DNA of 64,000 nucleotides from sequence record SRR2962707_1122; one strand, given 5' to 3'. The position numbers were made by a program, and so were the translations under genes. Under the pieces are notes generated by a model. That model ran no database searches. It saw only the letters and a list, made by a program, of their open reading frames with translations, and had not been told where the DNA came from. Position 1 is the stretch's first letter. Each line of letters starts with the position of its first letter. Below, piece by piece: positions 37,740-56,159 of this stretch.

Positions 37740-38186
37740 CTAAGTGATTTTACCAAGAAGTCGCTGCAAGGTGTCTTTTTCCTTGTCTGTCAAAGGGGCA
37801 AGCGTTTCCTCTGTGACTTTGATCGCAGCTTGAACAGACAAATCTGCCAGTTCGATACCCTGATCCGTCAATGAAATCAGGCGGCGTCGACGGTCTTCTG
37901 GATCAGCATGCATTTGAAGCAATCCGCGTGCAATCAATCGATCCACAACGCCCTTTGTGGTGGCGGCGTCCATCGCGACTGAGCGGCCCAGTCGATTCTG
38001 AGACATTGGCCCTTCGTTAGCCAGGCGGAACATGATTGAGAACTGAGTCGTGGTCAGTTTACCCGGCACCAATTCTGCGAAAATGGTTGAATTGCGCTGA
38101 TAGGCTTTGCGAAGCAGAAAACCAATTTGCTCATCCAGCTCATACCCGTGGTCAGCACTGGTCATTGGCTTAGGAACAGTATTCAC
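37740..38186 (-). CDS. MarR family regulator, NicR-like
   Basis: EQIGFLLRKAYQR, LTTTQF, MDAATTKGVVDRL, DPEDRRR; resembles my recollection of P. putida NicR; last gene of the pyridine operon. Confidence 0.85.
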   Translation of the reverse strand: MNTVPKPMTSADHGYELDEQIGFLLRKAYQRNSTIFAELVPGKLTTTQFSIMFRLANEGPMSQNRLGRSVAMDAATTKGVVDRLIARGLLQMHADPEDRRRRLISLTDQGIELADLSVQAAIKVTEETLAPLTDKEKDTLQRLLGKIT

Positions 38187-38263
38187 GGGGGGATCCTCCA
38201 GCTTTTCAAAGCCACAGGAACTACATTAGCCGATCTTTGATGGCAATGCCCCCCACAAATTGC

Positions 38264-38965
38264 CTAAACCGACAGATATGCATCACGAATTTCGGGATGT
38301 GCTTCCAATTCGGCAAAACTGCCGTCGAACTTCTTTTCTCCGCTTTCAATGATGATCGCACGGTCAGCAACCGCGCGGGCAAAGTGCAGGTTTTGCTCGG
38401 AAATCACGACGGTCAGACCCTCAGACTTGAGCGTTTTTATGGTTTCAACCATTTGTTCCACAATGACGGGCGCAATACCTTCAGAAGGTTCGTCTAGCAA
38501 AAGAAGCGCAGGATTGCCCATCAGTGTTCGCGCGATCGTTAGCATCTGCTGTTCCCCGCCGGACATGTGTTTTCCTCGGTTTGTTCTGCGTTCGGACAGG
38601 TTCGGGAAAAGTTCAAACAGTTGGTCTACTGTCCATACCGGGGCATCGGCCCGCTTGGGTTGGCGCCCAACTTCGAGGTTCTCCATCACCGTCAGATCGC
38701 TAAAGATGCGGCGATCTTCGGGAACATAACCGATCCCATTTCTGGCCACGTGATACGAGGGCACGCCGACAAGCTCTTTGTCTAGGAAGGTCACGGATCC
38801 TGAACGCGGGCGCACCAGCTGCATCACTGATTTCATCGTGGTGGACTTCCCGGCACCGTTTCGACCCAGGAGCGCGACAACTTCACCGCGCCCAACCTCG
38901 AACGACAGGCCGTCTAGGATATGAGCCTTACCATAGTAGCTGTGGATACTCTGAATATTAAGCAT
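38264..38965 (-). CDS. Liv-type ABC ATP-binding protein (LivF-like)
   Basis: GRNGAGKS, MSGGEQQM, LDEPSEG. Confidence 0.92.
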   Translation of the reverse strand: MLNIQSIHSYYGKAHILDGLSFEVGRGEVVALLGRNGAGKSTTMKSVMQLVRPRSGSVTFLDKELVGVPSYHVARNGIGYVPEDRRIFSDLTVMENLEVGRQPKRADAPVWTVDQLFELFPNLSERRTNRGKHMSGGEQQMLTIARTLMGNPALLLLDEPSEGIAPVIVEQMVETIKTLKSEGLTVVISEQNLHFARAVADRAIIIESGEKKFDGSFAELEAHPEIRDAYLSV

Positions 38966-39728
38966 CTTTAGCTTCCTCAAACAATGTTCCGCCGCCCAAA
39001 TAAACTTCTTGAACCTGCGGATTATTTCTAACTTGAGTGGCATCACCGTCAGCGATTAGTTCGCCTCGGTTCAAAACCATGATGTGGTGCGAATGAGCAA
39101 ACACAACGTCCATGTCGTGTTCGGTAAACAGAACCGAAACACCCTGATCCCGGACAATGTCAGCCACAAGCTGCATCAGCTCAACCCGCGCCGTGGGGGC
39201 CATCCCCGCTGTGGGTTCATCCATCAGTAAAAGCCTCGGGCGATGGGTCAAAGCAATTGCCAGCTCAAGACGTTTGAGATCACCGTAAGCCAATATGGAG
39301 CAAGGGCGGTCTTTCTGGTCTTGCATGGAGACAGTCGTCAGGAACTCCAATGCTTCATCGCGATAAAGCTTCCACGCCCGAGAGCGGATGTCGAACAATC
39401 GCCGATGATGGCTCATCAATGCCATTTGGACGTTTTCGATAACTGTCATGGATTGATAGGTGCCCGTGATCTGGAACGTCCGCCCCACACCCTTGCGCCA
39501 GATTTCGCGGGGTTTCCGCCCCGTGATCAGCTCTCCATCCAGAAATACGTTGCCTGCTGTTGCCTTTAACTGCCCCATCAACATGTTGAAACAGGTGGAC
39601 TTGCCGGCTCCGTTCGGACCGATGAGCGCCTTTAACTCTCCGGGCATTACAGAAAACGACACATCGTTGACGGCCAAGAAGCCATCGTAACTTTTCTTCA
39701 GATTTTCTACGCGAAGGATCTCGGTCAT
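38958..39728 (-). CDS. Liv-type ABC ATP-binding protein (LivG-like)
   Basis: GPNGAGKS, LAYGDLKRLE, EHDMDVV, VQEVYLG. Confidence 0.92.
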   Translation of the reverse strand: MTEILRVENLKKSYDGFLAVNDVSFSVMPGELKALIGPNGAGKSTCFNMLMGQLKATAGNVFLDGELITGRKPREIWRKGVGRTFQITGTYQSMTVIENVQMALMSHHRRLFDIRSRAWKLYRDEALEFLTTVSMQDQKDRPCSILAYGDLKRLELAIALTHRPRLLLMDEPTAGMAPTARVELMQLVADIVRDQGVSVLFTEHDMDVVFAHSHHIMVLNRGELIADGDATQVRNNPQVQEVYLGGGTLFEEAKDA

Positions 39729-41587
39729 TTTGTTGCCTCCTCTCCTTCGGAGCCTCGAATGCGTCGCCAGAAGCTGCGCATTGAGCCGACAATGCCCTCG
39801 GGGGCGATCACAACAACGGCAATAATGATAAGCCCAAGGAGCAAGCGCCAATATTCGAGGCGGGTGATCCAGTCTTCTGCGAGTGTCATAAAGCTGGCAC
39901 CGACAACGCCACCGGCAATGGTTTTGACACCGCCCAAGAAGACCACAATCAACGCATCAAAGCTGGCAGCGATTTCCAATTCTGTCGGAAACACCGACCC
40001 TTTGGAAAACACGAAGATCCCGCCAGCAAGTCCGGCCAGAACACCAGCAAGGGCAAAGGCCAGATATTGGATACGCTTCACATTGATCCCCATGGCTTCT
40101 GCTTGACGGGGGCTATCCCGTCCGGCGCGCAAGGCATACCCAAAGGGTGAATGGATCACGTGGCGCAGGAACAGAATACCACCGATCCCGAAAATGAGCG
40201 TGAAATAATAGTAAGGTATCGAACTGTTCAACCATGGGGCGGGCCAAATGTTGACCAGCCCATCGTCACCTCGGGTGACCGCGCGCCACTGAAAGGCCAG
40301 AGACCAAACCAGCTGAGAAAACGCTAAGGTGAGCATGGCGAAATAGACCCCGGTTAACCGGATACAGAACCACCCGATCCCTAACGCAAGCAGTCCAGCG
40401 GCAAGCGGTGCCAAAAGGAAAGCCAGCTCCATTGGCGTGTCCGTGTGAAACACCAGTAACGCGGCGGCATATGCGCCCCCGCCGAAAAAGGCGGCGTGGC
40501 CAAAGCTAACCAACCCGCCGGAGCCAAGGATAAAGTGCAAGGACGCGGCGAAGAGCGCGAAGACAACAATATCGACCAGAAGTGTCAGAACAAATTGCTC
40601 TGCGACCAAAGGCAGAATGGCGAGGATCACAAACAAGCCCGCGACCAATGCCTGACCGACGCGTCCATAGGGGCGGATCGGTTCTTCTGGAGCGCCCACT
40701 TGGCCGTGTTCCCCCGCCACTTCTTCACGACCAAACAGGCCGTAGGGGCGGATGATCAGGACAAGCGCCATCACAACGAACATCAGAACCAAGGTTGATT
40801 GGGGCAGGTAGGTGACGCCAAAGGCGTTCAGAACCGAGATCAATACAGAGGCCACAAATGCCCCCGGCAATGAACCCATGCCGCCAATCACAACGACCAC
40901 AAACACGGCGCCGATGATGTTGAAATCCATCAGCAAGTCTGCGCCCCCTTTGGGCAATTGCAGCGCGCCTCCCCATCCGGCGAGGGCGGAACCCAGGGCA
41001 AAAACACCTGTAAACAACCAAGCCTGATTAACTCCAAGCGCACCGACCATCTCGCGGTCCTGGGTGGCGGCTCTGACCAGAATGCCAACACGTGTTTTGG
41101 TGATCAAATACCAAAGGGCAAACAGGATGAACGGTGTAATAGCGATCAAGACAATATCGTATTTCAACACGGGTTCACCAAAAACACGCCAGATTCCACG
41201 AAGACCTGGCGCGCGTGGCCCAAGCTGGTCTTCGGCGCCCCAAATCATCAATGCCAAATCCTGAATGATGAGGATCACACCGAAGGTCGCCACCAGCTGG
41301 AATAGTTCAGGTGCGCGGTAAATCGGTCTCAGAACGATCATTTCCACCAAAGCGCCAATCAGGCCTACGATCAATCCGGTAAGCAGGATCGCGGTCCAGA
41401 ATCCGACGGCACCAGAGAGGGTGTCCATCAGGAAAATACCGATGAAGGCGCCCAGCATGTAAAAGGATCCATGGGCAAAATTGACAATACGCGTGACGCC
41501 AAAAATGAGCGACAAGCCCGAGGCTACAAGAAACAGGGCGGCGGCATTCGCCAATCCTGTCAGGAACAGTGAGAAGAAAAAGGCCAT
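39725..41587 (-). CDS. Fused LivH-LivM-type ABC permease
   Basis: IVNFAHG (LivH half) and VSFGHAAFFG...TLAFSQ (LivM half) in one 620 aa ORF. Confidence 0.9.
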   Translation of the reverse strand: MAFFFSLFLTGLANAAALFLVASGLSLIFGVTRIVNFAHGSFYMLGAFIGIFLMDTLSGAVGFWTAILLTGLIVGLIGALVEMIVLRPIYRAPELFQLVATFGVILIIQDLALMIWGAEDQLGPRAPGLRGIWRVFGEPVLKYDIVLIAITPFILFALWYLITKTRVGILVRAATQDREMVGALGVNQAWLFTGVFALGSALAGWGGALQLPKGGADLLMDFNIIGAVFVVVVIGGMGSLPGAFVASVLISVLNAFGVTYLPQSTLVLMFVVMALVLIIRPYGLFGREEVAGEHGQVGAPEEPIRPYGRVGQALVAGLFVILAILPLVAEQFVLTLLVDIVVFALFAASLHFILGSGGLVSFGHAAFFGGGAYAAALLVFHTDTPMELAFLLAPLAAGLLALGIGWFCIRLTGVYFAMLTLAFSQLVWSLAFQWRAVTRGDDGLVNIWPAPWLNSSIPYYYFTLIFGIGGILFLRHVIHSPFGYALRAGRDSPRQAEAMGINVKRIQYLAFALAGVLAGLAGGIFVFSKGSVFPTELEIAASFDALIVVFLGGVKTIAGGVVGASFMTLAEDWITRLEYWRLLLGLIIIAVVVIAPEGIVGSMRSFWRRIRGSEGEEATK

Positions 41588-41738: not shown

Positions 41739-41745
41739 GGAACCA

Positions 41746-42954
41746 TTAGTCAGCTGGGCGCATTTCTGCGATTTCAGCATCCGAAGGCATGTATGGGGCT
41801 GGATCTTTGTATTCCCAATCTACCATCACACCTTTGCCATCCTCGATAGCAATCGTGCCGACGTAGGCGCCCATGGTCGACTGGTTATCAATCGAGCGAT
41901 ATTTCAGCATGCCAATCGGCGTATCAGGGATTTCGAGATCTTCGAAGGCTGCCATCAAGGCCGCAGTGTCCGTCGATCCGGCTTTTTCGATTGCGGCGGC
42001 AATCGACAACACGTCCATATAGCCGACGAGTGACCCGATCTTTGGCGTTTCGCCTGTGGCCGCAATATAAGCATCGACAAAGTCCTGCTCAGGCGTGCCT
42101 TCTTCGAAGCCATACCAAGGGTAGCCCGTCACAAACCAACCTTCTGGGGCTTCGTCACCGAGTGGCTCAAGATACTCTGGTTCACCTGTCAAAAGGCCAT
42201 AGACACTGCGGCCATCGAAAAGACCGCGGTCCGTACCATCCCGCACGAATTTCGCGAGGTCTGAGCCAAAGGTCACGTTGTAGATCGCGTCCGGCTTAGA
42301 CCGTTCGATGGCCTGAACTTCCGCACCGGCATCGATTTTGAACAAAGCGGGCCACTGTTCTGCAACGAACTCAACCTCAGGCTTAAGCGCTTTTAGGTTC
42401 GCCTTGAAAGCGGCAACCGCATCTTGGCCATAGGCATAGTTCGGCGCGATAGTTGCGTACTTGATGGCGTCTGTCTTGGCGGCTTCTTCGGCCAACATCG
42501 CGGCCTGAACCCAAGTGGAGGCGCGCAAACGGAAAGTTTCGGCATTGCCTGAGCTCCAGACAAGGCTGTCTGCCAACGGTTCGGCCGCCAGATAGAGATA
42601 GCCTTTTTCCGATGCAAAGGAGGAGAGGGCCAGACCAACGTGGCTGAGGATCGTGCCGGTCAGCATGACCGCGCCGTCACGCGTCATCAGCTCTTCGGCG
42701 ATTTTGATCGCTTCGGCGGGGTCGCCTTGGTCATCGCGGTAGATGAACTCAAGCGGTTTGCCGAGTACACCGCCATCCGCGTTCACTTCGGATAAGGCAA
42801 GCTCAATTCCCAGTTTATACGGGGCCGCAAAGGCCGCCATACGTTTGTAATGATTGATTTCACCAATCTTGATTGTGTCTTGCGCAAACGCCGCGGCCGG
42901 AGCCATGGTAAGCAATGCAGCAGTCGCAAGTAATATACGTCGCGTAAAGGTCAT
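41746..42954 (-). CDS. Liv-type ABC substrate-binding protein
   Basis: Signal peptide, IKIGEIN, GGVLGKPLEFIYRDD, APNYAYG. Confidence 0.9.
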   Translation of the reverse strand: MTFTRRILLATAALLTMAPAAAFAQDTIKIGEINHYKRMAAFAAPYKLGIELALSEVNADGGVLGKPLEFIYRDDQGDPAEAIKIAEELMTRDGAVMLTGTILSHVGLALSSFASEKGYLYLAAEPLADSLVWSSGNAETFRLRASTWVQAAMLAEEAAKTDAIKYATIAPNYAYGQDAVAAFKANLKALKPEVEFVAEQWPALFKIDAGAEVQAIERSKPDAIYNVTFGSDLAKFVRDGTDRGLFDGRSVYGLLTGEPEYLEPLGDEAPEGWFVTGYPWYGFEEGTPEQDFVDAYIAATGETPKIGSLVGYMDVLSIAAAIEKAGSTDTAALMAAFEDLEIPDTPIGMLKYRSIDNQSTMGAYVGTIAIEDGKGVMVDWEYKDPAPYMPSDAEIAEMRPAD

Positions 42955-43017
42955 ATTGTTTCTCCTGTTGGGGAATGGATGCCTTGCGGCCAGTGGGGAC
43001 ACCCGGTCTTGTGCCGG

Positions 43018-44088
43018 TTAGTCGTGATAAACGAAGGCGGGGGATAAATCCGCAGGTAAGACTTCGGTGCGCTCAAGCTCTAATAGCTCGTTGATACGCT
43101 TGCGATAAACTAAGGGTCCTTTGTCGATAGCAATACGTATAGGACGGCGTTTGGCTGGGCGCATTTCTTCGGCCTGGACGGCTTCGAGGATCTCTTTGTC
43201 CTCATCAAACGCTTTGCGGAACATGGCGTCCATTGTTTCTTCGGCCGCGGGATCATCCAGCGCGGTGTTGCGGATGTGCATCCAGCGATCAATTGTGTAG
43301 CCTTCTGTCACCGGAGTCATGAAGTGCAGTGCAAAAATGCGCACGCCTTTATCGCGTTCATCCTCAGCGATTGCTGCCTCGACTGGGGCCGAACCAAAAT
43401 CAATCACAGCCGTGCAAGGGGTGTACAAGTAGTAGTAGTGCCAACGGTCGACGTTGCCTTCAAAGCCGCCGAACCCTTTGAAGAAACCAATGGGTTCCGC
43501 GTCTCTGATCCAGCGCCAGGCTACAATCGCCTCGCCTTCTGTTTGAACATGCACGGGCACATTTTCAGATGCGGCATTGCCCAAGGTTGTTGGGTGAACA
43601 AAGCTTACATGGGCTGGATCGACCAAATTCTCGGCCACATTAAGATAGTTGGATTTCAGATGCAGCGCATCGCCATGATGAACGGCCCAGGCAGGGTCCG
43701 TAAACTGGGGCATGTCAAAGATGTCGGCGGTGTCTGCCTTTTCAGGATCCCCCATCCAGATCCAGACAATGCCGTGTCGTTCTTCGATCGGAAAGGCCAG
43801 GACATAGGCGCTTTTGGGCAGGTTGGTTTGTCCAGGCACCCGAACGCAGGCCCCGGAACAGTCAAAGGTCAGGCCATGATACCCGCATTGCACGGTGTCT
43901 CCGATCCTCTTGCCCTTGGACAAGGGCAACAAGCGGTGCGGGCAACGGTCTTCCAACGCGGCTACTGTACCGTCGGACTTTCGGAACATGACAATGTTGT
44001 CATCCAGAATGGTAAAGCGGCGTAATTCATCGTCAATTTCACTGGACCAACCGGCGACATACCAAGCATTTCGTACGAAATTTGTCAT
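43018..44088 (-). CDS. Rieske non-heme iron oxygenase alpha subunit, VanA-like (O/N-demethylase-type group)
   Basis: NAWYVA, DRCPHR...CGYHG Rieske site, ENLVDPAHVSFVH mononuclear Fe site, FDEDKEILEAVQ. Confidence 0.9.
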   Translation of the reverse strand: MTNFVRNAWYVAGWSSEIDDELRRFTILDDNIVMFRKSDGTVAALEDRCPHRLLPLSKGKRIGDTVQCGYHGLTFDCSGACVRVPGQTNLPKSAYVLAFPIEERHGIVWIWMGDPEKADTADIFDMPQFTDPAWAVHHGDALHLKSNYLNVAENLVDPAHVSFVHPTTLGNAASENVPVHVQTEGEAIVAWRWIRDAEPIGFFKGFGGFEGNVDRWHYYYLYTPCTAVIDFGSAPVEAAIAEDERDKGVRIFALHFMTPVTEGYTIDRWMHIRNTALDDPAAEETMDAMFRKAFDEDKEILEAVQAEEMRPAKRRPIRIAIDKGPLVYRKRINELLELERTEVLPADLSPAFVYHD

Positions 44089-44116
44089 AAGCCTTGTTCC
44101 TTCGTCTCTAGAGTCG

Positions 44117-44695
44117 TTAGCGCAAGCCGTCCGCGCCAATGATATTTTGGTGTTCTAATCCGCCCACACGTGGGTTTGGGCGACCGCCGATTTGCAAGGC
44201 AATGGCGACAAGAATTTCTGTCGAGCGCGGCGCGTCAGGCAATTGTAGGCGCATGCCGTCAAAATGGCTGCGGACATAGGCGGCATCTTTATGGCCCAAA
44301 GGCACGTCGATCACGTCCCCAGGTCCACCCATCGCCTTCGATGAGGGAACCAAAGCTTTGCCGCCGCCCAGAACGTTCCGCAAGGGGGCGCCCATTTTGG
44401 GATGAAGCAATGCCGCGGCATGTTCCAGCTCTCCGGCCTCACCGACCAAAGCCGCTTTGCCATATCCTTGAACGTCTGAGGCATCGCAGCCCAAAGCCAT
44501 AAGAGCTTCTTGTCCTAAAAGGCTGCCTAAATGTGCACCGGTTTCGATCAATTCGCCCAAGTCGTCGCTATAGCGTCCGGCAAACGGATTAGCGATCACC
44601 GCTGCCGCCAAAGCGCGCTGGGCGGGGGGGGAAATCTCCCGCCCCATTTCGCGCCGGGTTTCTTCGCGCAGAGTTATGATGCGGCGAATTTTCAA
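44117..44695 (-). CDS. DUF1185 / 'amino acid synthesis' family protein
   Basis: NPFAGRY, GYGKAALVG, GELEH, VRSHFD, GGL. Confidence 0.85.
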   Translation of the reverse strand: MKIRRIITLREETRREMGREISPPAQRALAAAVIANPFAGRYSDDLGELIETGAHLGSLLGQEALMALGCDASDVQGYGKAALVGEAGELEHAAALLHPKMGAPLRNVLGGGKALVPSSKAMGGPGDVIDVPLGHKDAAYVRSHFDGMRLQLPDAPRSTEILVAIALQIGGRPNPRVGGLEHQNIIGADGLR

Positions 44696-45276
44696 CGCAA
44701 GCCATCCTCGCCTTTGACGTCCTTGGCCGCCAAACCGCCGACACGTGCGTGGATGCGGCTGCCTGTGCTCATGACCAGTACCAGAAGAATTTCATCGGCT
44801 TTTGGGGCGTCCGGTAGGCCAACTTCGATCGCATCAAAATGGGACCGCACATAAGAGGCATTGGTGTGTGTGATCGGGACATCCAAACGCGCGCCGGGGG
44901 CGCCGACTTTTTTGGTTGAGGGTACGATGGCCATGTTTTCTGCAATCACATCGCGCATCGCATAGCCGCCGGGAACATGCCAAAGCGCGCCATGCTCGAT
45001 TTCGCCATTTGTGCCGACAATGGCGCCCTTTCCGTATCCTTCAACCACGGCAGCATCACCGCCAAGGGCGTCGACTAACTGCTTGGCCATATCGGCCCCA
45101 AGGGGTTCGAGATCTTTCATGAAGCCTTGGATGTCTTCCACATAACGCCCCGCAAAGGGGTTCGCGATCACAGTCATACAGGCGGCGCGCTTCAAGGGAA
45201 CTTCGGGTGTGGGCCCGCCTTCGTGGAAAATGGTTTCAACCAGAATTGCCGATTTTCGAATGATGGGTTCAGGCAT
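44692..45276 (-). CDS. DUF1185 / 'amino acid synthesis' family protein (paralog)
   Basis: NPFAGRY, GYGKGAIVG, GEIEH, YVRSHFD, RIHARVGGL. Confidence 0.85.
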   Translation of the reverse strand: MPEPIIRKSAILVETIFHEGGPTPEVPLKRAACMTVIANPFAGRYVEDIQGFMKDLEPLGADMAKQLVDALGGDAAVVEGYGKGAIVGTNGEIEHGALWHVPGGYAMRDVIAENMAIVPSTKKVGAPGARLDVPITHTNASYVRSHFDAIEVGLPDAPKADEILLVLVMSTGSRIHARVGGLAAKDVKGEDGLR

Positions 45277-46132
45277 GTGATAGTTCCTTGCGTGTGACGA
45301 GGTCGCCAATTGTTATCCGCTCTCCCTGGCACGCGAGGCATGCCGCGGATATGAGACCTTGTTTTCTATAGTGGTCGGCCAGTTTTGCCCCGTTCGCAAG
45401 CGCTTGTTGCGCTTCAGAGGGAACCAAGGGCCCAACGTCAACTGTGACAGGACGAGTGCCAAGATCACTGTCAGGGGACAAAGTGTCGGCGGGTGCACGG
45501 GTAATGGCAGGATGATCCGTCAAGTTTACTGAGTTGGCAATAAGCGTTGCGGCAGCGTCCGCCACCGCGGCAGACTTTGCCAGAACCGTGACGGCATCGG
45601 CGATTCCCATGGAATGAGAACGCCCGCGCCATCCAGACGTTGCGACACCACCGATGCCATCCCTGGGCCCGATCTGTGCCTTGGCGCCGAGTGTCCTACT
45701 GATCGGGTCTTCGCAGACTGTCAGGCGGAGCGGATCTTTCACCGTCCACAGGGCGATGTCCCCACCATTATTCACATGTGCCTGTGACAAGCCGTGATTG
45801 TGCGTCAGAACGGCCGCCAAGATATGATCGGCGACACTGCCGGCAACGGCGGCCATAGGGGTAATAAAGGTCGGGGCGAAACGCGAAATCGCCTGCTGCA
45901 TCCTACGGGCCACGTCTCCGGTGACCTGAGGCCCAGAGTTAGACCGTAATCTAGGCAGTTCCGAAACCAAACTATTCAAGATGGGTTGAAAGGCCTTGTT
46001 CGCGCGGTTGTAGGCAGATCGTACCGCGTCGGGTGACCCTTTGAGCGTCACGATAAGGTCAATTGGGCCGTGCACCAAACGAAGCCTGCCGTCTTGCGAT
46101 AAACGCGCCGAAGGAGTTTCGGTCCAGCTCAT
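45269..46132 (-). CDS. UPF0280 family protein (ApbE-like fold)
   Basis: HGPIDL, TPMAAVAGSVAD, VNNGGDIA, ATSGWRGRSHSMGIADAVTV, ADAAAT. Confidence 0.85.
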   Translation of the reverse strand: MSWTETPSARLSQDGRLRLVHGPIDLIVTLKGSPDAVRSAYNRANKAFQPILNSLVSELPRLRSNSGPQVTGDVARRMQQAISRFAPTFITPMAAVAGSVADHILAAVLTHNHGLSQAHVNNGGDIALWTVKDPLRLTVCEDPISRTLGAKAQIGPRDGIGGVATSGWRGRSHSMGIADAVTVLAKSAAVADAAATLIANSVNLTDHPAITRAPADTLSPDSDLGTRPVTVDVGPLVPSEAQQALANGAKLADHYRKQGLISAACLACQGERITIGDLVTRKELSHA

Positions 46133-47637: not shown

Positions 47638-47671
47638 GGTCTGAGCTCCAATGTCGGCGCGTGCGGCGAAT

Positions 47672-47689: not shown

Positions 47690-47738
47690 ATAATGATTGT
47701 TTGTGTGTCAACAAGTTTGAGAAACTTTTTGTGATCGC

Positions 47739-48566
47739 TCAGTCCACAAAGGCTTTTTCGACCACGAATTCAGCGGGTTTGTTGTTGGCCCCTTCTGTGA
47801 GGCCCAAGTTTACACAAAGATCGCGACAATCGCGTAGCATTTCCATTGAGCCACAGATCATGACACGGTCATTTTTTGGGGTTATTGGCGGTACCGAAAG
47901 CTCTTTGTAGATGTAGCCGGACTCAATCAGTGTCGTTAACCGTCCTTGCACTGGAAAGGCTTCGCGGGTGACGGAGTTGAAAAGATGCAGGCGGCCACTG
48001 GCAAGCTCTCCGACTAAGGGATCTTCTTTTGTTGCTTGAGTAATTTCTTGACCGTAGGAGAGTTCTGCCACCTGACGCGCGCCATGACACAGGATAACCT
48101 CTTCAAATTGCTCATATGTTTCGGGATCCCGGATCAGGGACGCAAATGGTGCGATGCCGGTTCCGGTGGACAACATCCAAAGCCGTTTGCCCGGAGTTAA
48201 GGCGTCAACAACAAGCGTCCCGGTTGGCTTTTTACGCATCAGGACAGTGTCGCCCTCGCGAATTTTTTGCAGATGCTCTGTCAAAGGGCCGTCCGGGACT
48301 TTGATCGAATAGAATTCGATTGTGTCGTCCCAGGAAGGCGAAGCGATAGAGTATGCTCTCATGACAGGGCGATCAGAGTTCGGCAGTCCGATCATCACAA
48401 ATTCACCCGACCGGAACCTAAAAGAAGCAGGCCGTGTCACGCGAAACCGAAAGAGCCGGTCCGTGTAGTGCTGCACTTCTGTCACCGCAAGAGCAAAGCA
48501 ATTTGCCGGTACCGCGAATCCCGCTGTGTCCTTTTCAGAGTCCAGCTTTGCAGCTTGAGTGATCAT
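47739..48566 (-). CDS. fpr: Ferredoxin--NADP(+) reductase (bacterial Fpr type)
   Basis: FRSGEFVMIGL, RAYSIAS, GPLT, TGTGIAPF, MICGS, FVVEKAF. Confidence 0.92.
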   Translation of the reverse strand: MITQAAKLDSEKDTAGFAVPANCFALAVTEVQHYTDRLFRFRVTRPASFRFRSGEFVMIGLPNSDRPVMRAYSIASPSWDDTIEFYSIKVPDGPLTEHLQKIREGDTVLMRKKPTGTLVVDALTPGKRLWMLSTGTGIAPFASLIRDPETYEQFEEVILCHGARQVAELSYGQEITQATKEDPLVGELASGRLHLFNSVTREAFPVQGRLTTLIESGYIYKELSVPPITPKNDRVMICGSMEMLRDCRDLCVNLGLTEGANNKPAEFVVEKAFVD

Positions 48567-48614: not shown

Positions 48615-48630
48615 TCATTCGTATACAAAT
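48615..48630. promoter_or_regulatory. Operator 2 (TCATTCGTATACAAAT) in the fpr / Mo-hydroxylase divergent region
   Basis: Near-identical to operator 1. Confidence 0.68.
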
Positions 48631-48716
48631 AAAAAACAACTTTTGACTAAAGTTTGCAGTGATGTGCACGAAGGCAATTGACAACTTTTCATGCAGCTTC
48701 CTACGGTGTGCACATA

Positions 48717-48734
48717 TCATTTGCGTACGAATGA
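48717..48734. promoter_or_regulatory. Operator 3 (TCATTTGCGTACGAATGA) upstream of the Mo-hydroxylase
   Basis: Reverse complement TCATTCGTACGCAAATGA fits the same consensus; lies downstream of TTGACA at 48678. Confidence 0.65.
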
Positions 48735-48760: not shown

Positions 48761-49597
48761 ATGACGCTTCATCGCCCCGAATCGCTCGACGCTGCGCTCT
48801 CGCTGCTGTCTGACACTGGTGCCGTAGTTTTGGCTGGGGGCACCGATTTATACCCGAGCCTGCGTGACGGGGCGCCACCAGCGGTCATGATTGATGTCTC
48901 CGGTATATCTGGGCTGCGCGGCATTACGCTTGAAGACAACGGCTGGCGCTTTGGTGCCGCAACCACGTGGACGGATATCCTTGTGGCCGATCTTCCCCAT
49001 TTGTTTGACGGGTTAAAGGCAGCGGCACGCGAAGTGGGTTCGGTCCAAATTCAGAATACCGGAACGGTGGCGGGCAACCTTTGCAATGCCTCCCCGGCCG
49101 CGGATGGGGTGCCAGCGTTGATGGCACTGGACGCAGAAGTAGAGTTGGTCAGCCCAAACGGAACCCGCAAATTGCCATTGGCAAAATTCATAACGGGTCC
49201 GCGACGGACGGAATTGCAGCCGGGTGAACTCGTCTCTGCCATCTTGATTCCGAAAGCTGCCGGATCCGGTGCGTTTTTGAAACTGGGTGCGCGGAAATAC
49301 CTTGTGATCTCAATTGCGATGACATCGGCCGTGATTGAAACAGAGGCTAATCAGATCACACGGGCGCGCCTGTCGGTTGGGGCCTGCTCTCCGGTTGCGT
49401 TGCGGTTCTCAGATTTGGAGACCGCTTTGATCGGGGCCACGGCACAAACCGTGGGGGATATCATCGCCGCTTCTGAACTGCCCGGAATTGCGCCAATCGA
49501 TGATGTCCGGGCCAGTGGACTGTATCGGACAGGAGCGCTTCGAACCCTATTAACTCGCACCATTCTGAAGGCTATGGAGAACTCTGATGTCGCTTGA
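48761..49597 (+). CDS. Molybdenum hydroxylase FAD subunit (nicotinate dehydrogenase NdhF/CoxM-like)
   Basis: LAGGTDL, QIQNTGTVAGNLCNASPAAD, PIDDVRAS. Confidence 0.9.
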   Translation: MTLHRPESLDAALSLLSDTGAVVLAGGTDLYPSLRDGAPPAVMIDVSGISGLRGITLEDNGWRFGAATTWTDILVADLPHLFDGLKAAAREVGSVQIQNTGTVAGNLCNASPAADGVPALMALDAEVELVSPNGTRKLPLAKFITGPRRTELQPGELVSAILIPKAAGSGAFLKLGARKYLVISIAMTSAVIETEANQITRARLSVGACSPVALRFSDLETALIGATAQTVGDIIAASELPGIAPIDDVRASGLYRTGALRTLLTRTILKAMENSDVA

Positions 49598-52310
49598 TTC
49601 CCCCTTCGATCCGATTTCCTTTACCCTGAATGGCGCAAAGCTATCTGTTTCAGTCAATCCTGCGACCCGCCTGTCTGATGTGCTGCGTGACACGGCGAAT
49701 GCCAAGGATGTCAAAGTGGGCTGCAATGCGGGCGATTGCGGGGCGTGTACTGTCCTATTGGATGGCGCACCGATCTGTTCCTGTATTACCGCCGCAGGGC
49801 AGGCCGAGGGCAGAACGGTGGAGACACAGGCTGGCTTGTCCACAACAGACCCAGACGGCCAGAGATTGGCCAAAGCCTTCCAACGTCATCAGGCCGCGCA
49901 ATGCGGGATTTGCACACCGGGGATGATGGTCTCAGCTGTCGCGCTATTGCGGTCTGGCGAAGAGCTAACATCCGACTCTGTGTCTGATGCCTTGGGCGGC
50001 GTTCTTTGCCGTTGTACAGGCTACCGCAAAATTATCGACGCGGTTTTAGACGCTTCTACTGATGAGCTTTTGACAGACGGGACTTTGGGCGACTCCATTA
50101 CTCGGTTGGACGGTTGGCCCAAGGTGACCGGGACAGAGCTGTTTGGCGACGACGTCGCGCCCGTTGATGCGTTAACGCTACACGTAATCCGGTCGCCCTT
50201 CCATCGGGCCGGGTTCTCATTCGGAGATCTTGAGGCATTTCGGAGCCAGAATGGGCTTGATCTGGTCCTGACCGCCCATGACGTGCCGGGTGACAACAAA
50301 TTCGGTGTCATTCCTGGCTTCGAAGACCAGCCCGTCTTTGCGGAAACCGAAGCGCGCTTTAAGGGCGAAGCCGTTGCCGCTGTTATTGGAACAGCTGCGG
50401 CGCTCGCGGCGATGTCTGAGTTTCCGGTTGTTTGGCAAGAGCTTCCCAGCAACTTGACCCCTAAAGGTGCGGCCTCAGCTGCATTGTTGCACGACGACCG
50501 CTCGGACAATGTCATGTGCCGAGGATATGTCGCATGCGGCGATGCAGCAGCGGGCCTGAAGACGGCGGCACATGTGGTTTCGGGTGATTTTTCGACTGGG
50601 TTTATTGAGCATGGGTATATTGAACCAGAGGCCGCCTGGGCTCAACGGGTTGCTGACCGGCTAGAGCTGCAATGCTGCACACAGGCGCCCTATATGAACC
50701 GCGAAGCGATTGCGCGCATTCTTGGGCTAAAGGAAGAAGAAGTTCGGGTTGTACCAACCGCAACCGGGGGTGGATTTGGTTCTAAACTGGATTTGTCGGC
50801 GCAACCTTTTGTGGCTCTGGCTGCGTGGAAACTCGGGCGTCCGGTCAAATTGGCGTATACGCGAACGGAAAGCCTTATGAGCACGACGAAGCGCCATCCC
50901 TCTGAAATCCACATGGAGATCGGGGCCGATGAGACGGGCCGGATCGTTGCGGTGCGTTTTGATGGAGTGTTCAACACGGGGGCTTATGCCAGTTGGGGCC
51001 CAACAGTGGCCAACCGTGTCCCTATTCACGCATCAGGCCCGTATCTGACCCCAAACTACGAAGCAAAGAGTGCCGGTATTCACACGAATACCGCACCATC
51101 CGGCGCGTTTCGCGGTTTTGGCGTACCGCAATCCGCGGTCGCGCAAGAACAACTCTATGACATCATGGCCGACAAGCTTGGGATCGACCGGTTAGAGTTT
51201 CGCCGGAAGAACTGCTTGCTAAACGGGAATCCAACGGTCACGGGGCAGGTTTTTGATATCGGCATGGGTATGGATGCTTGTCTGGATGCGTTAACCACCC
51301 GTTGGCACGCGGCCTTGGCAGAGGCGGAGGCCTTTAACAAAACGAACACAACCCGGAAACGGGGCGTCGGTGTTGCAGGGGGATGGTATGGGTGTGGAAA
51401 TACATCAATGTCCAATCCGTCGACCGTTCGAGCCGGGGTGACCAGTGACGGTGAACTGTGTTTGCATCAGGGGGCCGTTGATATCGGGCAGGGGTCCAAC
51501 ACCGTCATCACGCAGATCTTTGCAGAAGCAATAGGCGTTCCGGTGTCACAAATCACCCGATTGGGCGCCGACACAGATCTTACACCGGATGCCGGGAAAA
51601 GCTCGGCCAGCCGCCAAACCTTTGTTACAGGGAATGCCGCGCGCTTGTGTGGAGAAAACCTCAGGGCTCAGATTCTGAAGATGGCCAATGTTGGGGATGG
51701 CGCGACAATCACCTTTGTTGATGGTGTGATCGAATTATCGGACGAAGGGACAACCAGCCGTGTCGTGCTTGACGCGGTAGAAGGGTATGCTTTGGAAGCG
51801 ATCGAAAGTTATGATCCACCGACGACAGCCTTGGACTCAAATGGTCAGGGCGATCCCTATGCCGTTTTTGGTACCGCCGCCCAAATGGTCGAGCTGGAAG
51901 TCGATATGGAGTTGGGCACAGTCAAATTGTTGGAATTCGCTGCCGCCCATGATGTGGGGCGCGCAGTCAATCCGCTTCTGGTCGAAGGGCAAATTGAAGG
52001 CGGTATTGCCCAAGGGATCGGTCTGGCTTTGATGGAAGAATTTTTGCCCGGCCGGACGGAGAACCTCCATGACTATCTTATCCCGACAATCGGGGATGTG
52101 CCGGAAATCGATTGCATCATTATCGAGACCGGTGATGCGCATGGCCCTTATGGCGCTAAGGGTTTAGGAGAGCATTGCCTGATCCCGACAGCGCCGGCGG
52201 TGCTTAATGCCATCGCCCATGCCAGCGGCGCCCGGATTCATCATCTACCAGCTACTCCTGATCAGGTGCGAACAGCGATTCTCGCGACTGAATCAGGCGC
52301 TGGATCGTGA
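49587..52310 (+). CDS. Molybdenum hydroxylase, fused 2x[2Fe-2S] + molybdopterin subunit (nicotinate dehydrogenase-like)
   Basis: GCNAGDCGAC, QCGICTPG, LCRCTGY, GGGFGSK, AFRGFG, DIGQG, SASRQT, GAKGLGE. Confidence 0.9.
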   Translation: MSLDSPFDPISFTLNGAKLSVSVNPATRLSDVLRDTANAKDVKVGCNAGDCGACTVLLDGAPICSCITAAGQAEGRTVETQAGLSTTDPDGQRLAKAFQRHQAAQCGICTPGMMVSAVALLRSGEELTSDSVSDALGGVLCRCTGYRKIIDAVLDASTDELLTDGTLGDSITRLDGWPKVTGTELFGDDVAPVDALTLHVIRSPFHRAGFSFGDLEAFRSQNGLDLVLTAHDVPGDNKFGVIPGFEDQPVFAETEARFKGEAVAAVIGTAAALAAMSEFPVVWQELPSNLTPKGAASAALLHDDRSDNVMCRGYVACGDAAAGLKTAAHVVSGDFSTGFIEHGYIEPEAAWAQRVADRLELQCCTQAPYMNREAIARILGLKEEEVRVVPTATGGGFGSKLDLSAQPFVALAAWKLGRPVKLAYTRTESLMSTTKRHPSEIHMEIGADETGRIVAVRFDGVFNTGAYASWGPTVANRVPIHASGPYLTPNYEAKSAGIHTNTAPSGAFRGFGVPQSAVAQEQLYDIMADKLGIDRLEFRRKNCLLNGNPTVTGQVFDIGMGMDACLDALTTRWHAALAEAEAFNKTNTTRKRGVGVAGGWYGCGNTSMSNPSTVRAGVTSDGELCLHQGAVDIGQGSNTVITQIFAEAIGVPVSQITRLGADTDLTPDAGKSSASRQTFVTGNAARLCGENLRAQILKMANVGDGATITFVDGVIELSDEGTTSRVVLDAVEGYALEAIESYDPPTTALDSNGQGDPYAVFGTAAQMVELEVDMELGTVKLLEFAAAHDVGRAVNPLLVEGQIEGGIAQGIGLALMEEFLPGRTENLHDYLIPTIGDVPEIDCIIIETGDAHGPYGAKGLGEHCLIPTAPAVLNAIAHASGARIHHLPATPDQVRTAILATESGAGS

Positions 52311-52395
52311 AGCACAGCAACCGTAGTTCAAGCCGTTTCCAACCCGTAGATACGTTTGCTCTTTGGTTGAGTGCCAAAGTGAAGGAAAGAACAAC

Positions 52396-54459
52396 ATGAA
52401 TGACTTTAAGACGCCAAATGGCACCTTCGCTGGCATCGATGTAGGCGGTACCTTCACCGATCTTGTCCATTACGACAGCAATGCGGGTCGGGTGAAACTC
52501 GCTAAGGTTCCGACGACTTTGGACAATCAGGCGCATGGGGTCTTGGCGGCGCTGGACGCGGCAGATGTGGACGCTGCGACGCTTGACTTAATCGTCCACG
52601 GAACGACAACAACGACAAATGCTGTGTTGGAACGGCAGCTTTGCAAAACAGGTTTGATCACCACTCTTGGTTTTCGGGATGTTTTGGAATTGGGGCGGCG
52701 CACTCGGCCCAATGCTTATGGGATGTCTGGGCAGTTCAAACCGCTGATTCCGCGTGACCTACGCCTGGAAGTGCCTCAGCGACATTTGGCGGATGGGTCC
52801 GAATACCTTGCCTTGGATGAAGATGCCGTGCGTGCAGCGGTGCAAACGCTGCGCGACGCTGATTGCGAAGCCATCGTTATTCATTTCCTGCATGCTTATG
52901 CCAATCCAGCCCATGAATTGTGCGCGCGGGACGTTGCTTTGGAGATTTGGCCAGAGGCCAACATCACGATGGGCCACGCGCTTTTGTCGGAAAGCCGGGA
53001 ATATGAGCGCGGCGTTACAGCAGCAGTGAATGCGTCGGTTCAACCCTTGTTGCGCCGATATGTTGAGCGCTTGGCGGATCGTTTGGCAGAACGCGGGTAT
53101 GAACGTGACTTGTTGGTGATGAATGGGAACGGCGGCATGGTGTCCGCGCGGATCGTTGCAGAAGAGGCCGCCAAAACGGTGATGTCCGGTCCGGCGTCTG
53201 GGGTGATGGCCGCAGCTTATACAGGCCGCCGGGCGAAAATCCCTGATCTTCTGACGTATGATATGGGGGGCACATCGACCGATGTCGCCATGATCCGAGG
53301 CGCCGATCCTGCGGTCAGCCACGAGATCGAGATTGAATATGCCATGCCAATTCACGTCCCGATGGTCGATGTGCGCACGGTAGGTGCGGGTGGTGGATCT
53401 ATCGCGCGGGTGGATGCGGCAGGTTTGTTGCAGGTGGGTCCGGATAGCGCGGGCAGCACGCCCGGGCCAATCTGTTACGGCAAGGGCGGCACCGACCCGA
53501 CGATTTCGGACGCCAATATGCTGCTAGGTCGGATGAACCCCGCGAAACTGAATACAATTGCCGGGGATGTGTCGATCGAGATGATCCGCGACGTCTTTGA
53601 CAAAGAGCTGGGGCAGGCGTTGAATCTGGACGCCATCGAAGCAGCGTCAGCTGTCTTGAAAGTGGCGACCGCCAAAATGGCAGATGCGGTTCGGATGGTC
53701 TCGATCTCTTTGGGCGAAGATCCAAGAGATTTTGCCCTCTTCGCTTTTGGTGGGGCCGGGCCTTTGCACGCCTGTGCCATTGCGCGGGAACTTGGCGTGC
53801 CACGTGTGCTTGTGCCAGCACGTCCCGGCATTACAAATGCGCTGGGCTGCATTGTGGCTGACTTGCGCCATGACTTTGTACAGACGATCAATAAACCCCT
53901 TGATCAATGTGATATGGACGAGGTCCACGCGGCCTTTGCCCGGCAGGTGTCGGATGGCAACAAAGCCATTGACCGAGAACGCGTTCAGATTGCGGAACGG
54001 CGCATCATGTATTTGGCCGAGATGAAGTTCATTGGTCAAACGCATTTGCTGCGTGTTCCGCTTCCAAATGCGGAACCCACAAGAGACGAGCTTCAGGAGC
54101 TATTTGAAGAAGCGTATTTCAAACGGTTTCAGGTAGCCTTGCCAGAGATCCGCGCCGCTTTGGTCAATGTGTCGACCTCTGTCATTGGTCGTCGTCCCGA
54201 GATCGATTTGTCCGCCTTGATCGACAAAGATGGTCGCAAGGCAACTTTGGAAGACGCTCAAACAGGTACGCGTTCGGTCTGGTTTGATGGGTGGGTTGAG
54301 ACACCTGTCTATTGGCGCGATCACTTACCCGCCGATGCAACGCTAAAGGGGCCGGCCATCGTTGAGCAAATGGACTGTACCCTAGTGATGGAGCCGGGTG
54401 ATGCCGCAGAACAAGACACGGACGGAAATCTTATCGTGACTGTAGGAGACGCCGCATGA
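52396..54459 (+). CDS. Hydantoinase/oxoprolinase subunit A (ATP-dependent lactamase)
   Basis: IDVGGTFTD, HGTTTTTNA, SGPASG, DMGGTSTD, GAGGGS, FGGAG. Confidence 0.92.
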   Translation: MNDFKTPNGTFAGIDVGGTFTDLVHYDSNAGRVKLAKVPTTLDNQAHGVLAALDAADVDAATLDLIVHGTTTTTNAVLERQLCKTGLITTLGFRDVLELGRRTRPNAYGMSGQFKPLIPRDLRLEVPQRHLADGSEYLALDEDAVRAAVQTLRDADCEAIVIHFLHAYANPAHELCARDVALEIWPEANITMGHALLSESREYERGVTAAVNASVQPLLRRYVERLADRLAERGYERDLLVMNGNGGMVSARIVAEEAAKTVMSGPASGVMAAAYTGRRAKIPDLLTYDMGGTSTDVAMIRGADPAVSHEIEIEYAMPIHVPMVDVRTVGAGGGSIARVDAAGLLQVGPDSAGSTPGPICYGKGGTDPTISDANMLLGRMNPAKLNTIAGDVSIEMIRDVFDKELGQALNLDAIEAASAVLKVATAKMADAVRMVSISLGEDPRDFALFAFGGAGPLHACAIARELGVPRVLVPARPGITNALGCIVADLRHDFVQTINKPLDQCDMDEVHAAFARQVSDGNKAIDRERVQIAERRIMYLAEMKFIGQTHLLRVPLPNAEPTRDELQELFEEAYFKRFQVALPEIRAALVNVSTSVIGRRPEIDLSALIDKDGRKATLEDAQTGTRSVWFDGWVETPVYWRDHLPADATLKGPAIVEQMDCTLVMEPGDAAEQDTDGNLIVTVGDAA

Positions 54460-56159
54460 CACTTGATCCCATTACATTGACCGTCATTCAATCTGGTCTT
54501 CAACAAGTCTGTGATGAGATGGATGTCAGTTTCTCTCGCGCGGCGTTTTCACCTGTAATTGCAGAGGCCAATGATCGCTCAGACGGTATTTATTCGGCGG
54601 TCGATGGCAGTTTGATCGCCCAAGGCTCGCAAGGTTTGCCGGTCTTTGTCGGGACGATGCAATACTCCACGGCTACGCTCATCGAGATGATCGCAAACGG
54701 GAAAGCCGTACCGCCAAAGCCCGGCGACATATATATCGTCAACGACCCGTATCTGGGCGGAACGCACCTTATGGACGTGCGCTTTGCGATGCCGGTTTGG
54801 CGGGACGGCAAGATCTTTTGTTGGCTGTCCAACACCGGCCATTGGCCCGATACGGGCGGTGCGGTTCCCGGTGGCTTTTCGGCCTCTGCGACAGAAGTGG
54901 AACAGGAAGGTTTGCGCCTGCCGCCCGTACGGCTGTTCAAGGAAGGCGAACTTGATCCCGAAATCTATGCCATCATTTGTTCAAACATCCGCGTTGCGGA
55001 CCAACGTATCGGCGATGTGAAAGCTCAGGCCGCCGCCCTTTATGTTGGACAGGCGCGATTGATCCGCCTTTTGGATCGCTATGGCGATGACACAGTGCAA
55101 GACGCGATTGGCCAATTACGCAGCCGTGCGGCGCAACAAATGAGGGCCAACATCGCGGGAATTCCACCGGGCACTTACCACTCTGTGGCCTATGTCGACA
55201 GCGATGGTGTTGTAAACGAACCTTTGGAAATTCGTCTTGCAATTAAAGCCGACGGGGAAACATTGGAGTTTGATTTTACCGGGTCGTCCGCACCTTGTGC
55301 GGGCCCAATGAACTCGGTTCTCGCAACCACGCATTCGTCGGTCTACCTCGCTATGCGGCATATTTTTCCTGATGTCCCAATCAGCGCCGGCGCGTTTGAG
55401 CCGTTGCGGATTGTTCGTCCGACAGACACGTTCTTGGATGCGCATTATCCGCGGCCTGTTTCAGGCTGCGCGGCCGAAGTCAGTCAACGTATCGCAGAGG
55501 CGGTCTTTGCCGCCTTGGTAGAACCTTTGCCGCATTTGGTGACGGCCTCGCCTGCCGGGTCGTCTGGTAATTTTGCTCTAGGGGGCGATGTGCCGGAAGA
55601 AGGCCGTAGCTATGTCATGTACCAGATTTCCGGGGGCGGTTATGGCGGTTATGCCGAAGGTGATGGTATTTCCAACGGATGTTCGACCATCGGTATTTCC
55701 AAAGCCCCACCTGTCGAAATCATGGAACAACAATTCCCCGTTCTGTACCACCGCTACGCTTTGCACGAAGGGTCCGGAGGAGCAGGCAAGCACCGTGGTG
55801 GCTTTGGGCTCGACTACGAAGTTGAGATCCTGAAAGGGACAGCGCGCGCCAGCTTTGTCATGGACCATGGAAAGTTTGGCCCTCAGGGCGCCGTTGGCGG
55901 TAAAGATGGCGGCGTGAACGAGATTTTGGTCACGCAAGGAGGTCAGAGTTTTGTACCTGAGCATCTATCAAAAGCGCAGGGAATTGCGCTGTCTGCTGGG
56001 GATCGTGTGCGGGTAAAGACGCCCGGCGGCGGCGGCTACGGTGCCCCGCAAGATCGCGACCCGGTCTTGATCGCTGAAGATGTGCGGCTTGGGCGCTATA
56101 CGGCAGAAGATTCTGAGCGTCTTTTTGGTCAAGCAGAGATCAAGGCCACCGACGGGTAG
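54456..56159 (+). CDS. Hydantoinase B / oxoprolinase subunit
   Basis: FSPVIAEAND, NDPYLGGTHLMD, HWPDTGG, GSGGAGKHRGG, TPGGGGYG. Confidence 0.92.
   Translation: MTLDPITLTVIQSGLQQVCDEMDVSFSRAAFSPVIAEANDRSDGIYSAVDGSLIAQGSQGLPVFVGTMQYSTATLIEMIANGKAVPPKPGDIYIVNDPYLGGTHLMDVRFAMPVWRDGKIFCWLSNTGHWPDTGGAVPGGFSASATEVEQEGLRLPPVRLFKEGELDPEIYAIICSNIRVADQRIGDVKAQAAALYVGQARLIRLLDRYGDDTVQDAIGQLRSRAAQQMRANIAGIPPGTYHSVAYVDSDGVVNEPLEIRLAIKADGETLEFDFTGSSAPCAGPMNSVLATTHSSVYLAMRHIFPDVPISAGAFEPLRIVRPTDTFLDAHYPRPVSGCAAEVSQRIAEAVFAALVEPLPHLVTASPAGSSGNFALGGDVPEEGRSYVMYQISGGGYGGYAEGDGISNGCSTIGISKAPPVEIMEQQFPVLYHRYALHEGSGGAGKHRGGFGLDYEVEILKGTARASFVMDHGKFGPQGAVGGKDGGVNEILVTQGGQSFVPEHLSKAQGIALSAGDRVRVKTPGGGGYGAPQDRDPVLIAEDVRLGRYTAEDSERLFGQAEIKATDG

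Follow-up and report, generated by a model that had tools for sequence, protein, structure and literature searches.

Background

Among the closest described systems, the fermentation of nicotinate by Eubacterium barkeri proceeds, in the parts of PMC9304392 and PMC3511419 that deal with it, through Mo-dependent 6-hydroxylation of the pyridine ring and subsequent reduction of 6-hydroxynicotinate to 1,4,5,6-tetrahydro-6-oxonicotinate (THON) by 6-hydroxynicotinate reductase (Hnr), and its lactam opener is the metal amidohydrolase enamidase (PDB 2VUN). The chemistry of this reductive pathway is summarised in PMC9304392, and a gene cluster for its first three steps, which also includes an ABC transporter and two conserved unknown proteins, is described in the relevant sections of PMC3511419 for Azorhizobium caulinodans (AZC_2790-2804), Bradyrhizobium (B. 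japonicum blr3818-3830) and Bradyrhizobiaceae SG-6C. Here, we compare with these systems a locus at positions 37740–56159 of a 64-kb stretch of sequence record SRR2962707_1122 (the whole stretch is called the window below), in which genes were called from the list of open reading frames (ORFs) and from profile scans against Pfam and NCBIfam.

The locus is a proteobacterial reductive (Hnr/THON) nicotinate cluster, that is, a variant of an already described type. As far as the Azorhizobium, Bradyrhizobium and SG-6C clusters are laid out in PMC3511419, it shares with them hnr, the UPF0280 and DUF1185 genes, a Liv-type ABC transporter, a MarR-family regulator, a nicotinate hydroxylase and the gene order, but it has a hydantoinase-type HydA/HydB pair instead of enamidase and an extra gene for a Rieske oxygenase between the second DUF1185 gene (DUF1185b) and the binding-protein gene. 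With E. barkeri it has in common the Mo-dependent hydroxylation followed by reduction to THON, whereas the window encodes a proposed ATP-dependent lactamase rather than a metal amidohydrolase, belongs to an aerobic host with a ferredoxin-NADP reductase (Fpr) in place of the fermentative ferredoxin, and lacks any of the later fermentation genes.

We consider it probable from the comparisons below that the locus is a reductive nicotinate regulon with HydAB in place of enamidase and an optional Rieske add-on. Nicotinate is likely the core substrate, because the differences in HydAB, Rieske oxygenase and Fpr appear to be modular and not the parts of one remodelled pathway. The first-pass annotation of this DNA had recognised a nicotinate-type Hnr cluster without enamidase, which holds, and had read the whole cluster as a pathway for a methylated pyridine, which the comparisons do not support; the methylated-pyridine idea survives solely as a proposal for one optional gene.

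Results and discussion

Enamidase and HydAB in hnr-carrying bacteria

The absence of enamidase that had been noted for the locus extends to the entire 64-kb window, where tblastn with a verified ortholog gave a best E-value of 0.054 over 72 residues. This ortholog is a 391-aa amidohydrolase, encoded next to hnr in numerous relatives, and its match to PDB 2VUN (1.2e-107) identifies it as a true enamidase. For a neighbourhood survey, the window proteins were mapped by tblastn onto 80 hnr loci with 10-kb flanks, and counts are given over 82 loci. Within 10 kb of hnr, enamidase was present in 30 loci and HydAB in 12, never both together, and 40 of the 82 showed neither opener within these flanks. 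Since HydB frequently lies 11–15 kb from hnr, the loci with neither opener are partly an artefact of the flank length. Whole-genome searches found enamidase in none of five HydAB-type genomes among the closest relatives and in all five control genomes. Of ten genomes with neither opener at the locus, eight encode enamidase, and one of the two that lack it has a HydB of 76% identity on another contig.

The same complementarity was found in a family sample of 151 genomes around a close relative (G001), the nearest named members of which are marine Roseobacter-group bacteria. hnr occurs in 58 of these genomes, and with HydB orthologs of at least 74% identity, 29 of the 58 encode HydB, 26 enamidase, none both and three neither, leaving 55 with exactly one of the two. 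All but one of the 30 HydB orthologs in the sample reside in hnr genomes, the exception being genome G140. The lactamase swap is not rare, as about half of the hnr genomes in this family carry HydAB.

One of the three hnr genomes with neither opener carries a broken hnr. In this genome (G036:C28:4403-5617) the homolog is interrupted by five stop codons, both enamidase and HydB are missing, and the nicotinate pathway appears to be decaying.

In a plasmid collection, the identity of HydB matches steps from at least 68% to 57% and then to 42%. Nine contexts were counted among the hits of at least 68%, with at least seven further records in this band outside the count, and eight of the nine contain hnr and span five families (two Pseudosulfitobacter plasmids, Sagittula, Neorhizobium, R. 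lusitanum, Pleomorphomonas, Fuscovulum and Methylobacterium). The matches at 57% and 42% have no linkage to hnr. In Neorhizobium and R. lusitanum, the genes form a single operon, hnr-UPF0280-DUF1185-DUF1185-hyuA-hyuB. Taken together, the comparative genomics supports the lactamase swap well, and it is best read as a non-orthologous replacement in which HydAB would act as an ATP-dependent THON lactamase. The hydantoinase A+B pair had been put forward as such an opener before, and its exclusivity with enamidase (0/58 hnr genomes with both) leaves it the best candidate.

A separate plasmid context was seen in Sinorhizobium medicae WSM419, where HydA and HydB on pSMED01 (L083; 60% and 72% identity) have one DUF1185 gene and a MarR gene as neighbours and the 14-kb flanks contain no hnr; the arrangement is possibly a remnant, or else HydAB and DUF1185 may have a use apart from the Hnr pathway. 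Four related loci have a gene for a creatininase-family amidohydrolase that converges on the final transporter gene (L029:18292-19092, L036:18272-19087, L042:19253-20062 and L053:19276-20070). It was considered as a third ring opener but probably is not one, since enamidase is encoded elsewhere in the genomes of L029 and L042.

HydAB among the ATP-dependent lactamases

As the lactamases CapAB, OplAB and HyuAB are portrayed in the sections of PMC8453981 on this family, HydAB shares with them the two-subunit make-up, the Hydantoinase_A and Hydantoinase_B domains and the ATP motifs, and here too a cyclic-amide substrate is proposed. The ATP-binding motifs given there for the A subunit of caprolactamase (DxGGTxTD, DxGGT and GxxPGP) have counterparts in HydA at residues 26 (DVGGTFTD), 300 (DMGGTSTD) and 364 (GSTPGP). 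H104, D107, H129 and an Asp near position 40 of HydB are possible candidates for the Asp-His-Asp-His metal site of the B subunit. Best PDB matches of HydAB were N-methylhydantoinase (2.7e-126) and 5-oxoprolinase. The pair differs from CapAB, OplAB and HyuAB in scoring below the caprolactamase equivalog cutoffs, in belonging to an ortholog group of its own that is tied to hnr (at least 68% identity, with the next matches at 57% and 42%), and in its proposed substrate, the enamide delta-lactam THON. If HydAB opens THON, a natural substrate would be added to a poorly understood family of ATP-dependent lactamases, and about half of the hnr genomes of the G001 family would spend ATP where the others hydrolyse simply. 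Our literature searches, which covered sources other than subscription journals and supplementary files, found no report that ties hydantoinase, oxoprolinase or caprolactamase genes to nicotinate.

Several points tell against this assignment and the pathway built on it. HydAB reached 485 and 287 bits with the NCBIfam caprolactamase profiles NF050156 and NF050157, for which the cutoffs are 1000, and its substrate can therefore not be read from homology. The Fisher p-value for the exclusivity of the openers (3e-13) ignores relatedness among the genomes, and enamidase elsewhere in the host genome is excluded only by analogy with relatives. Moreover, the HydAB family includes carboxylases too, among them those for acetone and acetophenone, and specificity within it is, in the relevant part of PMC8453981, unpredictable from sequence. 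HydAB might thus have a different lactam as its substrate, or carboxylate an intermediate further along the pathway with ATP, with ring opening left to another conserved protein such as the DUF1185 pair or to an unrecognised hydrolase, an arrangement that would accommodate both the S. medicae cluster without hnr and the HydB ortholog of the hnr-less genome G140. We nevertheless regard it as improbable given the strict complementarity with enamidase, and because the operon and operator are common to HydAB and hnr in several families. The DUF1185 pair, for its part, substitutes for neither opener, since it is present in enamidase-type and HydAB-type clusters alike.

Hnr, its helper proteins and the conserved core

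The order MoFAD-MoFeS-Hnr-UPF0280-DUF1185-DUF1185 is near-universal across the 82 loci, and the survey fixes Hnr, UPF0280 and the two DUF1185 proteins as the conserved core; Pseudosulfitobacter pseudonitzschiae and Sagittula stellata carry the same gene string on plasmids. The Mo hydroxylase, an enzyme of the xanthine dehydrogenase (XDH) family presumed to be the nicotinate 6-hydroxylase, is syntenic with hnr in most related loci. The 520-aa Hnr ORF had no Pfam or NCBIfam match and phmmer against the PDB returned nothing, nor did a model of Hnr (pLDDT 72.6) have a PDB fold match at E ≤ 0.001. Its identity rests on its homologs, which form at least 8000 clusters; every NCBI, UniRef and JGI name listed for them, apart from "hypothetical protein", is 6-hydroxynicotinate reductase. 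The window Hnr is 64–88% identical to the Hnr of the 80 loci, and across 31 sequences nine Cys residues are invariant, as is a GCGSA stretch, after which comes a T that is nearly so.

Hnr of E. barkeri depends on ferredoxin. The Fpr of the window has FAD and NAD domains and no Fe-S domain in Pfam, and orthologs occur in 12 of the 82 loci, six with and six without the Rieske gene. In the six Rieske-less loci fpr stands beside hnr or the lactamase genes, as in Xanthobacter, where it lies between enamidase and hnr; the loci of Neorhizobium and R. lusitanum likewise have it close to hnr. Because of this distribution, it is more likely that Fpr feeds electrons to Hnr.

The flavin of Hnr is reportedly bound covalently. 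In a Foldseek search with an AlphaFold model of UPF0280 (pLDDT 92.4), DVU1097 came first, followed by the flavin transferases ApbE, FmnB and Ftp at E-values of 3.5e-5 to 6e-3 with weak TM-scores of 0.3–0.5, and Pfam gave no ApbE match. On the strength of this modelled fold, UPF0280 is a candidate flavin transferase for Hnr. The DUF1185 pair follows hnr-UPF0280 in nearly all related loci and matches PDB 3byq at 7.7e-61. As presented in the accessible part of the paper on the DUF1185 structure (PMC2954203), a guess at amino-acid metabolism was drawn from neighbouring Liv genes. No publication that gives DUF1185 or UPF0280 a function, and no functional study of SPO0826-0831, was found in the literature searches described above.

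In six loci of the enamidase type (L015, L017, L020, L022, L023 and L025), the Mo hydroxylase genes or hnr are immediately preceded by a gene for an aldehyde:ferredoxin oxidoreductase (AFOR_N and AFOR_C domains; L015:4583-6304, for example). Its product might link the oxidation of the aldehyde formed by ring opening with the reduction of ferredoxin for Hnr.

The Rieske oxygenase as an accessory gene

Over its full length, the Rieske protein matches DdmC, its best solved homolog (1.7e-46), and like DdmC and VanA it has both the Rieske ligands and the mononuclear-iron motifs, with CPHR, CGYHG, the AHVSFVH region and EDK kept in the DdmC alignment. It differs from these two enzymes in that no VanB-type reductase and no DdmA/DdmB partners are encoded nearby and in that its orthologs occur only with hnr. 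An ortholog is present in 26 of the 82 loci, usually between DUF1185b and the binding-protein gene or heading the transporter operon; 11 of these loci also have enamidase and nine have HydAB. The family sample gave 11 of 151 genomes (four of the HydB type, six of the enamidase type and one with neither), which amounts to 11 of the 58 hnr genomes and none of the 93 without hnr. A Sulfitobacter pontiacus plasmid combines Rieske, Fpr and enamidase genes, the Rieske gene is missing from the HydAB clusters of Rhizobiaceae, Pleomorphomonas, Fuscovulum and Methylobacterium, and the Hnr tree requires 14 gains or losses of it. This distribution across loci, tree and genomes ties the Rieske gene to the Hnr pathway as a dispensable component that is independent of the opener, and we interpret it as a mobile accessory gene of that pathway.

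The modularity bears directly on the broader proposal that the entire cluster serves a methylated pyridine, with the Mo enzyme converting trigonelline to N-methyl-6-pyridone-3-carboxylate, the Rieske enzyme and Fpr demethylating this to 6-hydroxynicotinate, and Hnr and HydAB completing the route. Mo hydroxylases of this family oxidise N-methylpyridinium compounds, all four enzyme types are present with one operator common to them, the Rieske protein is a complete VanA/DdmC-type demethylase-like protein, and its nearest paralogs lie in N-methylamine contexts (see below). Against this, Rieske, Fpr and HydAB vary independently; 47 of the 58 hnr genomes have no Rieske ortholog, HydAB clusters outside the Roseobacter group lack it as well, neither the Mo enzyme nor the binding protein shows added divergence between sister loci with and without the gene, and the HydAB cluster of Neorhizobium adjoins a gene annotated as nicB, nicotinate dehydrogenase. 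We therefore think it unlikely that the cluster is devoted to a methylated pyridine. The neighbourhood survey, which had been suggested at the outset as a check, separated enamidase from HydAB and found the Rieske gene with either of them, so the earlier grouping of Rieske, Fpr and HydAB into a single pathway is not sustained.

Plasmid-borne matches to the Rieske protein fall in identity from at least 68% directly to 44%. Paralogs of 42–44% were seen in three contexts of the N-methylamine type, one after a sarcosine-oxidase-like operon and two with a VanB-like reductase and genes for an amine ABC transporter. The first of these, on a plasmid of Rhodobacteraceae bacterium M382 (L093:2080-8047), has the 42%-identical paralog right after a soxBDAG-like operon for a heterotetrameric sarcosine oxidase and before a Liv-type ABC transporter; judged by its genes, it is an uncharacterised cluster for N-methylamine catabolism.

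Within the nicotinate pathway, it is plausible that the Rieske enzyme demethylates a methylated analogue and so supplies the route, with trigonelline as the obvious candidate. Algae and plants commonly exude nicotinate, which is vitamin B3, and also trigonelline, its N-methyl betaine. The hnr-linked enzyme would then be a trigonelline N-demethylase, forming nicotinate from trigonelline, or 6-hydroxynicotinate from its pyridone, with release of formaldehyde. It would be a plug-in module by which the nicotinate pathway is extended to a major metabolite of the sea and the rhizosphere; we advance this tentatively. Direct demethylation to nicotinate takes fewer assumptions than prior action of the Mo enzyme, and nothing favours the latter over the former.

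Some of the evidence runs counter to N-demethylation. DdmC is an O-demethylase, not an N-demethylase, and the N-demethylase NdmA aligns over the Rieske domain only. No conserved reductase or ferredoxin partner accompanies the Rieske gene, and 20 of the 26 loci that have it lack Fpr. The flanks of these 26 loci are heterogeneous and hold no conserved gene for formaldehyde handling, with a Zn-dependent alcohol dehydrogenase in one (L031). Between sister loci with and without the Rieske gene, the binding proteins are 86–88% identical and the Hnr proteins 87–90%; the binding protein being as conserved as Hnr, there is no sign of a second imported substrate. It is accordingly possible, if likewise doubtful, that the enzyme hydroxylates or O-demethylates another compound related to nicotinate (with a ring-methyl or methoxy group) or acts on an intermediate of the pathway. 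Against this alternative, the enzyme is not a core pathway step, because 47 of the 58 hnr genomes do without the gene and the Hnr tree implies its repeated gain or loss (14 events); the contexts of the nearest paralogs, moreover, are N-methylamine-like. Trigonelline is also the abundant natural derivative of nicotinate where the carriers live, in the sea and with legumes.

As far as PMC13236597 sets them out, the homarine route encoded by homABCDER and the trigonelline (tgn) route of Acinetobacter use a flavin monooxygenase pair and oxidative ring opening, and the methyl group is retained. They would share with the window Rieske enzyme N-methylated pyridine carboxylates of algae and plants as substrates, and the domains of their gene products (flavin reductase/monooxygenase pair, amidase and aldehyde dehydrogenase) were not found by Pfam in the ORFs of 37740–56159. 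A Rieske demethylase combined with a THON lactamase would, if confirmed, constitute a second, demethylating route for trigonelline that is distinct from the flavin route of tgn. Should the Rieske enzyme demethylate trigonelline, its gene could be named for the reaction and serve as a marker of trigonelline use in ocean and rhizosphere metagenomes. The literature searches described above turned up no named gene for a bacterial trigonelline demethylase.

Operators and start sites

The first-pass annotation had reported three copies of one operator, and a scan of the window with the 18-bp palindromic pattern TCATTCGTATACGAATGA, allowing up to three mismatches, returned three matches, against 0.01 expected from shuffled sequences. 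All three lie in the hnr/fpr/Mo promoter region, and there is no copy at marR or the transporter genes in the window. The operator was found in 23 of 93 loci; in Neorhizobium it immediately precedes hyuA, and in Chelativorans HydA.

Copy 1 overlaps the annotated N-terminus of Hnr. The true start of hnr is probably the GTG at 47637, because a GGAG stands 8 nt upstream of it and the extension contains a stop in a relative (L004). Alignment places the start of the Rieske gene probably at 44088, and the two Liv-type ATPases probably start downstream of both their ORF starts.

Proposed pathway

In the pathway that we propose, a MarR/NicR-type regulator would control three promoters through the one palindromic operator, and each enzymatic step is a prediction from the gene content. 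Nicotinate would be taken up by the Liv-type ABC transporter, hydroxylated at C6 by the XDH-family Mo enzyme and reduced as 6-hydroxynicotinate to THON by Hnr, probably with NADPH electrons delivered through Fpr and after installation of the covalent flavin by UPF0280. HydA/HydB would then open the THON lactam with ATP in place of enamidase, yielding 2-formylglutarate and ammonia. The DUF1185 pair would belong to this process as part of the conserved core. Through the optional Rieske add-on, a methylated relative, with trigonelline most likely as the leading candidate, would enter as nicotinate or 6-hydroxynicotinate with release of formaldehyde; the substrate of the Rieske enzyme is the least certain element of the scheme.

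The closest solved homolog of the binding protein is PDB 3I45 (4.8e-134), which may hold nicotinate; no paper on the ligand of this structure was found.

Gene content of the locus

Every gene named in the first-pass annotation was recovered at 37740–56159 (Table 1). On the minus strand, hnr, UPF0280, the two DUF1185 genes, the Rieske gene and those for the binding protein, LivHM, the two ATPases and MarR follow each other from 47691 down to 37740. fpr lies upstream of hnr on the same strand and is divergent from the plus-strand string of FAD subunit, 2Fe-2S/Mo subunit, HydA and HydB. A MarR ortholog was seen in most related loci when the hnr loci were mapped by tblastn.

Table 1. Genes and operator copies of the hnr locus, with positions in the window
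Feature	Position	Strand	Evidence or context
MarR-family (NicR-like) repressor, terminal gene of the minus string	37740-38186	-	Pfam MarR 1.8e-12
Two Liv-type ABC ATPases	38264-39046, 38958-39851	-	Pfam ABC_tran, BCA_ABC_TP_C
Fused LivH/LivM-type permease	39725-41587	-	Pfam BPD_transp_2, two stretches, 1.3e-69
Periplasmic binding protein, presumed nicotinate binder	41746-43002	-	Pfam Peripla_BP_6 7.5e-59
VanA/DdmC-type Rieske monooxygenase, accessory gene	43018-44139	-	Pfam Rieske 9.8e-22, VanA_C 3.8e-47
Tandem DUF1185/AA_synth paralogs	44117-44695, 44692-45309	-	PF06684 2.6e-67, 2.3e-69
UPF0280 protein	45269-46159	-	NCBIfam NF003322, 324 bits (cutoff 290)
Hnr (6-hydroxynicotinate reductase homolog), 520-aa ORF	46129-47691	-	Names of homologs
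Operator copy 1	47672-47689		Upstream of probable hnr start, just downstream of a TTGACA
Fpr-type ferredoxin-NADP reductase	47739-48566	-	Pfam FAD_binding_6 and NAD_binding_1; NCBIfam PRK10926 144 bits, below cutoff
Operator copy 2	48615-48632		Upstream of fpr
Operator copy 3	48717-48734		27 nt upstream of the Mo-hydroxylase operon
Mo hydroxylase FAD subunit	48761-49597	+	Pfam FAD_binding_5, CO_deh_flav_C
Fused 2Fe-2S/Mo hydroxylase subunit	49587-52310	+	Pfam Fer2, Fer2_2, Ald_Xan_dh_C, MoCoBD_1, MoCoBD_2
HydA	52363-54459	+	Pfam Hydant_A_N, Hydantoinase_A, Hydant_A_C; 2.5e-86
HydB	54456-56159	+	Pfam Hydantoinase_B 5.2e-154

Neighbouring genes

Outside the cluster edge, positions 33584–37629 encode a LysR regulator, an FMO-like flavoprotein, an M19 membrane dipeptidase and an AAA_33 kinase, none of which is kept beside hnr in 81 loci. 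The M19 dipeptidase (35967-37007) was considered as an alternative hydrolase and set aside, as it adjoins hnr conservedly in 0 of the 81 loci. On the other side, an IclR regulator gene is followed by genes for the two CoA-transferase subunits (A and B) and for a thiolase, in a pcaIJF-like order (58165–61837). Their products could activate glutarate or 3-oxoadipate in the later part of nicotinate breakdown, and the CoA-transferase/thiolase string has no conserved adjacency to hnr in relatives.

Further away, five plus-strand genes at 8178–16129 encode a saccharopine dehydrogenase-like protein, a class I/II aminotransferase, an aldehyde dehydrogenase, HGLS (2-oxoadipate dioxygenase/decarboxylase) and a fusion of an FAD-linked oxidase with a 4Fe-4S domain. 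This string looks like a route from lysine and 2-oxoadipate to 2-hydroxyglutarate.

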